This document shows, in pieces, positions 57,001 through 60,000 of a DNA stretch of 64,000 bases (the first letter of the stretch is position 1; the number at the start of each line of letters is the position of its first letter). The position numbers are program-made. The stretch is from Escherichia coli. GTDB taxonomy: Bacteria; Pseudomonadota; Gammaproteobacteria; Enterobacterales; Enterobacteriaceae. The DNA lies in NCBI RefSeq assembly GCF_016903815.1, contig NZ_CP069974.1. One strand, given 5' to 3'.

Positions 57001-60000
57001 AATGTTGATATGGCGGAACTGCTTATCCACACCCTGACTGAGCGCGTAGCTATAACTGAAGGCCATCTTTTCCGGGTGGCTTTTGCGATATTTTTTCAGC
57101 TCAGTCAGGCTGCTGAATTCCAGGACGTCCCACTCTTCCCCGGTGTTTTTTTTCTTCCCGGCAACAAGAAGCGTGTACGACGCGGTGTTAACGTGGATAT
57201 TTCGGGTACTCATCCTGCTTTCTCCTCTCTCTGGTTTTCAGCCCCCATCATCTGTTGAGTTTCGGGAGCCGCGGTTTTGACGTTTTGCGGGGACCTGCCT
57301 TTTGTTCCCTCCGGTATTCACCATCACCTTTTTGAGAACCTTCGCCGCAAGGGGCATCACTGCCACGGACGGAAACGACTGTCCGGGGGCAGACCGCAAA
57401 AGTTTTTGCCTGCTTCTGGGCAAAAAGTTTTGCGGGATGTGCATTTCACCCCTGGACTGGCGGAGACGGTTGTGGCTGTCTTTGCCCCCGGCGACAGGGG
57501 CTTAAACAGGTGAATGGCACCGGACAGAACAACGGGCAGGGACCCGCCGCAACGACGTGAAGCGCGGTTTGCGAAACGGCGTTGCCCCTTACATCCCGGC
57601 GGTCTTTTGCCGGGATGCCAGGAGCGCAGGCCACGGCGCGACAGAGGCGGCGCGACCGGAACGGTCGCTGCAAGCCAGGGGTTTTCACGCATCGGACCGT
57701 AGCGACAGCCCGAAACCGCGCCAGCGGGTTCGGCGGAGACTGGCAGGTGCGCCAGCAGCTGCCTGTCGGAGTCGGGCCTGACGACCGGATGCCGCCAGGC
57801 AGCCGGGAGCCGAAGGTGCGCGTGCGACAGGAAGTCGCTTAACGTATTGTTTTACATTGATAAAACCAGCTATCCCATTAGCTGTAGCCTACCGGGACAG
57901 GCGTTGCCGGCAACGGCGGGGTCTGAAGCTCCCGGGACAACGAGAGCCGGGCGTCAGCCCGGGTAATGCCCCGTGAGGGGCTTTACCTTGCTGCAAGCAT
58001 CATGCGGCAGGAGAGCAAGGCTGGTCAGAAGGGTTAACACATGTGAACTGTTGATAAACACCGTTATCGGCAACAGGCCAAAGATGCTGACAGGCCTGAA
58101 CCAAAAGGTACGGGGTCCGGTTGCTACCTCGCGCACAGGGAGCACATGGGCGCAGAGACCCCCGGTGAAGAGACAGAACCCGCCCTGACCCTCTGTATGT
58201 TAAGCGGAACCTGGTAAACCCGTATCGCTGCCTCACAGGCAGGTGAACCGCAAGGAACACTGTTAGCGGTGCGGGCATAGGAGGACGGAAAAAGCGAATG
58301 CCCGGCTGTAATAACCGGGATACGGGGCAGGTTCCCCGACGCGAAAGCGGGCAGACTTCCGTCTGGTCTTTAATTGCATGAAAAGCTGTAAAGCAGTCAA
58401 AAGGATATCAGCGAGATGAATACACACATCAGTGTGTCCACGATACCCCACCCGACAGGCTGGCACACCATAAACTGGAAAGCATGCCATGCCCGGGTGC
58501 GAAAGCTACAGTTACGGATTGCAAAGGCAACCCGACAGCAACAATGGCGGCAGGTCAGAGAACTACAGCGCATCCTCACCCGCTCATTCTCCGGCAAAGC
58601 CGTGGCTGTCAGGCGTGTAACTGAAAATACCGGTAAAAGGACACCCGGTATTGACGGAAAAATATGGCACACACCGAAGGAGAAATGGGAAGGAATATGC
58701 AGCCTGAATCTGTGTGGTTACAGGCCACAGCCACTACGGCGAATACATATCCCAAAATCAAACGGCAAAACGCGACCGCTGGGCATACCCACAATGAGGG
58801 ACCGGGCCATGCAGGCACTGTGGCTGCTGGCTCTGGAACCCGTATCCGAGACCACTGCTGACCATAACAGCTATGGTTTCAGACCAATGCGCAGCACGCA
58901 TGACGCCATTGAGTCCATTTTTCTGCGGATGAGCCAGAAAGTATCGCCCAAATGGATACTGGAGGGCGATATTAAAGGGTGCTTCGATAACATCAGCCAT
59001 GACTGGCTGCTTTCCCATATTCCGATGGACAGGAGACTGCTTAAAAAATGGTTGAAAGCAGGTTACATGGAAAGAGGCGTGTTTAACCATACGAACAGCG
59101 GGACACCGCAGGGAGGCATCATATCCCCTGTTCTCGCCAACATGGCTCTGGACGGACTGGAGAAGGAACTGATGCAAACGTTCAGGAAAAGTGGTTATCA
59201 CAGTGCAAAGCACCAGGTGAATTATGTGAGATATGCTGATGATTTCATCTGTTCAGGCAGCTCCCGTGAATTGCTGGAAAATGAGGTCAGACCACTGATT
59301 GCAGCTTTCATGCGCGAACGAGGGCTGGAACTGTCGGAAGAAAAAACAGCGATCACACATATAGATAAAGGCTTCGACTTTTTAGGGCAGAACGTCAGGA
59401 AGTACAACGGTAAAATGCTGATTAAACCGTCGAAGAAAAACCTGAAGAACTTCCTCTGTAAAGTCAGAGAAATAATTAAACGCAATCCGACGCTCCCGGC
59501 ATGGAAACTGATAGGCCAGCTAAACCCGGTGATCCGGGGATGGGCTACCTATCACCGACACGTCGTGGCGAAAGAAACATTTAATTATGTCGACACCCAA
59601 ATCTGGCGAGCTATATGGCGATGGTGTGTAAGACGGCATCCCCGGAAAGGATTGCGGTGGATCGCCGGACGATACTTCTCCTTTGAAGGCAGGCGCTGGA
59701 TCTTTAAAGCCATAACCCCGGAAGGGAAAATTCTGACACTCTTCCGGGCAATGGAAACACCGATAAAGCGCCATATAAAAATCAAAGGCGAAGCAACACC
59801 ATACACCCCCGGAATGGAAATCTACTTTGAACGTCGTCTGGATCTAATCTGGAAAGGCAAATCAAAGAAGATGAAGACAGTAGTTCAACTCTGGAAGAGG
59901 CAGGGGAAACACTGTCCGCAGTGCGGACAACTCATAACCAACCAGACCGGATGGAATATACATCACCGGATCAGGAAAGTTATGGGCGGCAGTGACGAAC

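Follow-up and report, generated by a model that had tools for sequence, protein, structure and literature searches.

The window analyzed here, a stretch of 64,000 nucleotides from the Escherichia coli contig NZ_CP069974.1, comes from an IncF-type conjugative plasmid, and its segment from positions 57242 to 57591 (plus strand) is almost certainly this plasmid's copy of Frpo1 (ssiD, ssp1a), the class 1 single-stranded DNA (ssDNA) promoter of the F leading region. An earlier note on this DNA had suggested that the stretch from 57214 to 57821 could be a structured single-strand promoter or ssi-type element of the kind carried by F-like leading regions. This suggestion held, as F ssiD was recovered at full length on the transferred (plus) strand and the surrounding genes are those of F Frpo1. 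The assignment of the window element is supported by its sequence identity, strand, position, fold, conserved pairing and absent coding potential; its recognition by RNA polymerase, its strand-specific activity and its priming function are presumed by homology, from the experiments done with F.

Frpo1/ssiD, as found at 57242 to 57591, is an already known, well-studied and ordinary feature, which has been recognized as a single-strand initiation signal since the early 1990s and as a single-stranded promoter since 1997, the latter through the work of Masai and Arai. The element upstream of ygeA/ygeB was named Frpo1 and equated with the in vitro Frpo of Masai and Arai 1997 (PMC9849209, Couturier et al. 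2023), and a 2026 preprint names it ssp1a (bioRxiv 10.64898/2026.01.09.698686). The in vivo role of Frpo1 was published between 2023 and 2026, and the present copy has little discovery value. Its value is one of annotation, in that the region should be labelled as regulatory or as an ssDNA promoter, and not as a "hypothetical protein" CDS, as is done in public records.

Identity, transferred strand and gene context

For the alignments, the ssiD query was taken from supplementary file 4 of PMC11541004, which holds five reference Frpo/ssi sequences (Samuel et al. 2024). All 351 of the 351 nt of F ssiD (D90178) aligned to positions 57242 to 57591 of the plus strand with 96.6% identity (E value of 2e-165), the differences being nine substitutions and three single-base indels. 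The Frpo2 fragment of Samuel et al., which is a working ssDNA promoter, was 87% identical to the window element, and the ColIb-P9 repeats listed as Frpo1-3 exhibited 76 to 81% identity around the apex, over ~80 to 115 nt. The comparison with the F and ColIb-P9 Frpo/ssi sequences, which the earlier note had put forward as a check, therefore came out in favor of its proposal. Once the intron was removed, the stretch from ygeA to hok also aligned with F, at 91%. The region was found in at least 5000 plasmid records, usually at 2 to 5 places in each. An Rfam scan of positions 54000 to 62000 in E-value mode returned no family for the region itself and identified intron domains, the traJ 5' UTR and sok nearby; Rfam holds no model for a Frpo1-type DNA element.

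The strand on which the element acts follows from the position of oriT. The sequence TTTTTGCGTAGTGTGTGGTGCTTTTGG, located at 55073 to 55099 of the plus strand, is the one that TraI of the R100/R1 type recognizes and nicks; this motif, its strand and the nick between GTGT and GGTG are assigned after the established TraI ssDNA recognition sequences. Because the nic motif lies on the plus strand, this is the transferred strand, which enters toward rising coordinates. The hairpin is found ~2.2 kb 3' of the nick (about 55088/55089) on the same strand, and the transferred strand is the template of ygeA and ygeB, as a single-strand promoter requires.

As seen in Table 1, the F-type order of hok/sok, Frpo1, ygeA, ygeB, orf169, oriT and traM is kept. 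The region from 57214 to 57821 is bounded by the start codon of ygeA and by the group II intron, whose first position is 57822, in agreement with the placement first given to it, directly upstream of the minus-strand leading-region genes and beside the intron. Beyond the intron, hok/sok, an IS150-like element, psiA and psiB were identified.

Table 1. Position, strand and basis of the features in and around the Frpo1/ssiD element of the window.
Feature	Coordinates	Strand	Basis or remark
traM	54373-54756	-	
A/T-rich oriT	~54757-55090		
oriT nic region, R100/R1 type (GTAGTGTGT/GGTGCTTTT)	55080-55097	+	motif match
orf169 transglycosylase gene	55087-55689	+	
ygeB (orf273, DUF932), second gene of the Frpo1 operon	55986-56807 (alternatively 56888)	-	99.3% identity to F; RefSeq DUF932
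ygeA (orf95), 95 aa, first gene downstream of the promoter	56926-57213	-	97.9% identity to the F protein
Core of the leading-region repeat common to F Frpo1 and Frpo2	57234-57685	+	57234-57683 against the ssb-proximal copy of F, 89%
Frpo1/ssiD orthologue (almost certain); by homology, class 1 ssDNA promoter and RNA-polymerase-dependent priming signal	57242-57591	+	ssiD alignment
Long imperfect hairpin (5' arm 57259-57410, loop 57411-57418, 3' arm 57419-57577)	57259-57577	+	ssDNA MFE and centroid folds
A/T-rich apical palindrome (CCGCAAAAGTTTTTGCC-N8-GGCAAAAAGTTTTGCGG)	57394-57435	+	kept in F, ColIb-P9 and Salmonella copies
GC-rich distal segment of the repeat, beyond every Frpo fragment defined by experiment	57592-57821	+	71.7% GC, 230 nt
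Group II intron, starts GTGCG, ends GAC	57822-60164	+	intron-less NZ_CP024863 100% identical on both sides
Intron RT/maturase ORF	58416-60083		
Last ~53 nt of the repeat, split off by the intron	60165-60217	+	CP088484 match

Fold, conserved pairing and coding potential

The region had been described as GC-rich and hairpin-dense, and its composition and fold are in agreement with that description. The GC content of positions 57214 to 57821 is 63.2%, versus 52.3% for the whole window. When this stretch was folded as ssDNA, in answer to the earlier call for a prediction on both strands, the plus strand reached -178.3 kcal/mol, compared to -128.6 +/- 5.3 kcal/mol for dinucleotide shuffles (z of -9.3, with 0 of 20 shuffles as good), and the minus strand gave a z of -6.3. 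That the minus strand also folds well is expected, because any long inverted repeat must. For the ssiD part alone, values of -99.9 kcal/mol (z of -8.6) and -86.7 kcal/mol (z of -6.8) were obtained for the plus and minus strands, respectively, so that in this segment the plus strand is 13 kcal/mol stabler than its complement. Nine G.T pairs of the plus strand, which correspond to C.A mismatches in the complement, contribute to this gap. The gap in stability fits selection on the transferred strand.

The local hairpins, which had been listed separately, are united in one imperfect hairpin of ~320 nt (57259 to 57577), whose apex is the palindrome at 57394 to 57435. About 129 pairs of the whole fold enclose this apex, 9 of them G.T. 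The palindrome consists of CCGCAAAAGTTTTTGCC at 57394 to 57410 and GGCAAAAAGTTTTGCGG at 57419 to 57435, that is, two 17-nt arms with 94% complementarity around an 8-nt loop. Both this inverted repeat and the sequence CCCGGCGGTCTTTTGCCGGG, located at 57595 to 57614, had been cited as strong inverted repeats, and both are present.

Conservation of the pairing was evaluated in an alignment of 11 homologues, comprising the window, F Frpo1 and Frpo2, three ColIb-P9 repeats, and Serratia, insect-metagenome and Salmonella sequences. From these homologues, the central section of the long stem was returned by RNAalifold. With this structure, which derives from the same alignment of related sequences and applies G.U rules to DNA, paired cells reached 90.6% across the 11 homologues, versus 79% for column shuffles and 42 to 48% for slid partners; changes on both sides were seen in 22 of the 44 pairs, and 0 of 500 shuffles reached the observed values. 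The stem is therefore maintained with compensatory changes across the F, ColIb-P9, Serratia, Salmonella and metagenome homologues, and the conserved structure whose absence from homologous plasmids would have spoken against the proposal is present.

Hairpins of this kind could also be read at the RNA level, in an ordinary intergenic region that holds a 5' UTR structure or terminators together with a conventional duplex promoter. The minus-strand sequence does fold better than its shuffles, as given above, and a weak terminator-like site was listed at 57548 to 57535 (minus strand). Nevertheless, terminator-like sites number 3, against a shuffle expectation of 1.6 +/- 1.4, and the terminator reading was rejected, with hairpins devoid of T-runs and counts at the level of shuffles. 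A consensus scan of the minus strand found no duplex sigma-70 promoter facing ygeA, and the plus-strand fold is the stabler one through its G.T pairs, which the other strand holds as C.A mismatches. Moreover, deletion and strand-inversion experiments in F revealed a dependence on the transferred single strand (PMC9849209, PMC11541004). Taken against an ssDNA promoter, this RNA-level explanation is very improbable.

A coding role is still less probable for the region; here the RefSeq/PGAP annotation has small proteins, with a 68-aa "hypothetical protein" at 57238 to 57444 (minus strand) and another across 57685 onward. Both NZ_CP024863 and CP088484 carry such CDS annotations, and ORFs of 62 to 111 aa occur in all frames; however, overlap of ORFs in six frames is what is expected for DNA of 63 to 72% GC, and none of the eight ORFs of this size passed the Pfam cut-off (a 67-aa ORF exhibited a sub-threshold DUF2256 match, with an E value of 0.043 and 14.4 bits versus the 25-bit cut-off). 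The reading frames are broken between copies, since indels of 1, 4 and 7 nt among F Frpo1, F Frpo2 and the window shift them, and the 111-aa ORF is missing in F. The substitutions seen in homologues compensate base pairing, and in CP088484 one such CDS is called "single-stranded DNA-binding protein", a name that has evidently spilled over in annotation. The ORFs are thus short and overlapping in all frames, as had been noticed, with no credible gene at 57214 to 57821. The Pfam scan of the ORFs and the frame comparison of the copies found no conserved gene spanning the region, and its non-coding appearance was confirmed.

The group II intron and the distal part of the repeat

Rfam places intron domains D1 to D4 at 57866 to 58015 (121.8 bits) and D5/D6 at 60088 to 60164 (60.1 bits). 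The intron and the transferred strand have the same sense, and the leading genes run the other way. The intron lies within the distal end of the repeat and is not part of the promoter, whose hairpin is left intact. Recognition of a target by a group II intron generally involves roughly 15 to 30 nt around the insertion site and not 600 nt.

The earlier note had also considered that the region might be part of the intron target or of a 5' exon structure, and this holds only trivially, in that the far end of the repeat is where the intron lies. A functional tie to the intron, with the region as 5' exon structure, homing-site structure or part of the ribozyme, would fit the direct contact of the two at 57822, the insertion site inside the dispersed repeat and the recurrence of the junction in plasmid records; it is most improbable given that the ssiD part ends 230 nt before the junction, that the Rfam intron domains start only at 57866, that a recognition span of roughly 15 to 30 nt contrasts with a region of 600 nt, and that intron-less plasmids carry 56800 to 57821 at 100% identity joined straight to 60164 onward. 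Among the plasmids that hold the region (at least 5000), the examples examined, F and NZ_CP024863, have no intron at the site; in the latter the region is 100% identical, so it does not belong to the intron.

A reading of the region as intron-related was therefore rejected. Even at a distance of 230 nt, the intron might in principle affect folding or the upstream context; the same exon-intron junction is nonetheless found in at least 1013 plasmid records. This widespread insertion evidently spares the promoter hairpin. For IncF33 plasmids, the literature describes a group II intron located in the backbone (PMC10654068).

The repeat itself is longer than the promoter. Because the F copies and the CP088484 copy share more than the experimentally defined 328 to 351 nt, a dispersed repeat of ~450 to 640 bp can be delimited. 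In CP088484, the ssb-proximal copy corresponds to 57234 to 57821 joined to 60165 to 60217, with 99.4% identity. Many plasmids, pO157 among them, match the query only to about position 472. A blastn self-search identified no other copy of the repeat within the window, where psiA, psiB and the 3' end of a ParB-like gene are seen at 62272 to 63941, and the plasmid's own ssb-proximal (Frpo2) copy must lie past the window end.

The distal part, from 57592 to 57821, contains several short G+C hairpins (for example, at 57592 to 57617 and at about 57650 to 57666) with a z of -4.7, and its helices 9 and 10 exhibit limited covariation. It is conceivable, albeit unlikely, that this part and the piece at 60165 to 60217 form a functional module of their own on the transferred strand, whose ssDNA hairpins might also attract the group II intron. 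Such a module may, for example, keep SSB off, position RNA polymerase or slow complementary-strand synthesis.

Candidate promoter core, proposed mechanism and known systems

By homology with F, the plus strand would be nicked at oriT (about 55088/55089) and would enter the recipient 5' end first, with the element following ~2.2 kb behind the nick. Prior to complementary-strand synthesis, the plus strand would fold on itself into the ~320-nt imperfect hairpin (57259 to 57577), the stem of which would mimic duplex promoter DNA, with mismatches and bulges mimicking the open -10 and start region. Host sigma-70 RNA polymerase might then bind and transcribe toward lower coordinates into ygeA and ygeB, with the 5' arm and the adjoining DNA serving as its template. 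The transcript would produce a burst of early ("zygotic") expression, and its RNA-DNA hybrid could also prime complementary-strand synthesis. Once the strand has been copied, the hairpin would be lost and the promoter with it.

Several of these steps have been described in homologues. Deletion of Frpo1 in F abolished early ygeA-sfGFP expression in transconjugants and lowered transfer to about 25% (PMC9849209). The activity of Frpo2 depends on the transferred strand and on its leading position (PMC11541004), and for the IncI1 plasmid pESBL the start sites of ssi1-3, which are homologous class 1 promoters, were mapped in transconjugants (PMC12672017). Early complementary-strand synthesis near ssp1a involves rifampicin-sensitive priming (bioRxiv 10.64898/2026.01.09.698686).

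Within the window element, the ladder and the alignment led us to infer where the -35, the -10 and the start lie. Our best guess for the core is the segment from 57430 to 57458 in the 3' (non-template) arm, with a -35-like TTGCGG at 57430 to 57435, a 17-nt spacer and a -10-like TGGACT at 57453 to 57458. The A/T-rich apex at 57394 to 57435 is a candidate UP-like element, after the description in PMC11541004. A conserved unpaired bulge of 9 nt (57440 to 57448, TGCATTTCA) is located within the candidate spacer, and an internal loop of 4 by 4 nt (57463 to 57466 opposite 57372 to 57375) is located where the start site would fall for this core. Two of the bases in the -10-like hexamer, T57453 (a G.T wobble) and T57458 (a T.T mismatch), exist in the hairpin form only; the duplex form would read CGGACA. 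The candidate -35 and -10 hexamers each match the consensus at 3 of 6 positions, which is weak, and the hexamers could conceivably be placed in at least two other ways. The pattern TTG...N15-17...T(G/A)GAC recurs in homologues, with a -35 to -10 spacing of 15 to 17 nt.

Other placements were weighed but not adopted. TTGACG (57277) with TTTTGT after 17 nt and TTGAGA (57333) with CATCAC after 17 nt both lie in the 5' arm and point toward the apex; the former is missing from the ColIb-P9 copies, and the partner of the latter is missing from the Frpo2 construct of Samuel et al. Taking TGGACT (57453) as the -35 and TGTCTT (57477) as the -10 gives a spacer of 18 nt here and of 21 nt in F Frpo2. Finally, a -10 inside the 9-nt bulge would place the -35 in the loop.

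Compared with known systems, the window element is like F Frpo1 in its sequence (96.6% over 351 nt), in its strand relative to oriT, in having ygeA/ygeB downstream and hok/sok upstream, and in its long imperfect hairpin with an A/T-rich apex. It is unlike F Frpo1 in that the nic motif of the window is of R100/R1 type and not of F type, and in that a group II intron follows 230 nt beyond its ssiD segment, in the distal repeat. F Frpo2 (ssp1b), found upstream of ssb-yfjA-yfjB-psiB-psiA, is a paralogous copy of the repeat with 89% identity over 57234 to 57683; however, its downstream operon is another one, the sequences of its apex and bulge differ, and its hexamer spacing is 15 nt, versus 17 nt in the window.

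The ColIb-P9/IncI1 elements ssi1-ssi3, which are reportedly class 1 ssDNA promoters (in work attributed to Bates et al. 1999, Nasim et al. 2004 and Wen et al. 2025), share the same architecture and a conserved apex-proximal core, with the stem kept by compensatory changes. In contrast to the window element, the lower stem in ColIb-P9 is largely non-alignable and lacks the base segment containing TTGACG, and the downstream genes are others. The likeness to class 2/3 ssDNA promoters (F Frpo3/ssp2, upstream of ardB/klcA and of a methyltransferase gene) is that of a long transferred-strand hairpin that rebuilds a promoter; the papers on these promoters describe no sequence homology to class 1 (PMC12672017; bioRxiv 2025.04.03.647016). 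In addition, ssp2 acts as a replication roadblock (bioRxiv 10.64898/2026.01.09.698686), a role described for ssp2.

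Coding sequences annotated within the promoter hairpin

Public records place a "hypothetical protein" coding sequence within the hairpin of the Frpo1 single-stranded DNA promoter, and in CP088484 one such sequence is labeled "single-stranded DNA-binding protein." No open reading frame of the promoter-hairpin region reached the Pfam cutoff, and the reading frames of these coding sequences are not conserved; for these reasons, they look like annotation artifacts.

Features of the window and of related plasmid records
Feature	Record	Coordinates	Strand	Remarks
CDS in promoter hairpin	window	57238-57444	-	public annotation
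CDS, same kind	NZ_CP024863	9025-9231; 9472-9702		public annotation
CDS, same kind	L003 (public plasmid sequence)	4005-4211		public annotation
Group II intron	window	57822-60164	+	RT/maturase ORF 58416-60083
Second, different group II intron	NZ_CP024863	15888-17789	as ssb	ltrA, ~633 aa
Frpo2 copy	NZ_CP024863	start 18463		
IS150-like element	window	60743-62112	-	orfA 61591-62112, orfB 60743-61594
TraJ-like ORF	window	53562-54239		PAS domain, 225 aa; downstream of traJ 5' UTR match
ssiE homologue	window	55684-55872	+ (transferred strand)	between orf169 and ygeB

Introns and an insertion element

In the window, the group II intron interrupts the Frpo repeat within its distal end; the intron has the same sense as the transferred strand and is antiparallel to the leading genes. 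Its exon-intron junction was found, identical, in at least 1013 plasmid records, which points to either a favored homing site or wide clonal spread. In NZ_CP024863, the ltrA intron is located between Frpo2, the ssb-proximal copy of the repeat, and ssb. The DNA flanking Frpo may be a recurrent intron target.

The IS150-like element adjoins the hok/sok locus (site given as 60478-60796 and 60743-62112, minus strand). As the Rfam sok match (60634-60796) overlaps the end of this element and scores 35.5 bits, below the 59-bit threshold, hok/sok may be damaged on its antitoxin or promoter side.

Control, initiation and transfer sequences compared with known plasmids

An Rfam match to the traJ 5' UTR at 54150-54282 (-) was subthreshold (41.2 bits versus 50), and its position upstream of a TraJ-like ORF fits a divergent traJ/finP control region. 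Next to orf169, the window matches the full length of F plasmid ssiE (97.4% over 190 nt), and on this alignment the segment is a homologue of that second single-strand initiation signal. The oriT nick sequence at 55073-55099 (+) belongs to the R100/R1 type (GCGTAGTGTGTGGTGC), not the F type (GCGTGGGGTGTGGTGC). Its leading-region genes nonetheless share 98-99% identity with those of F.
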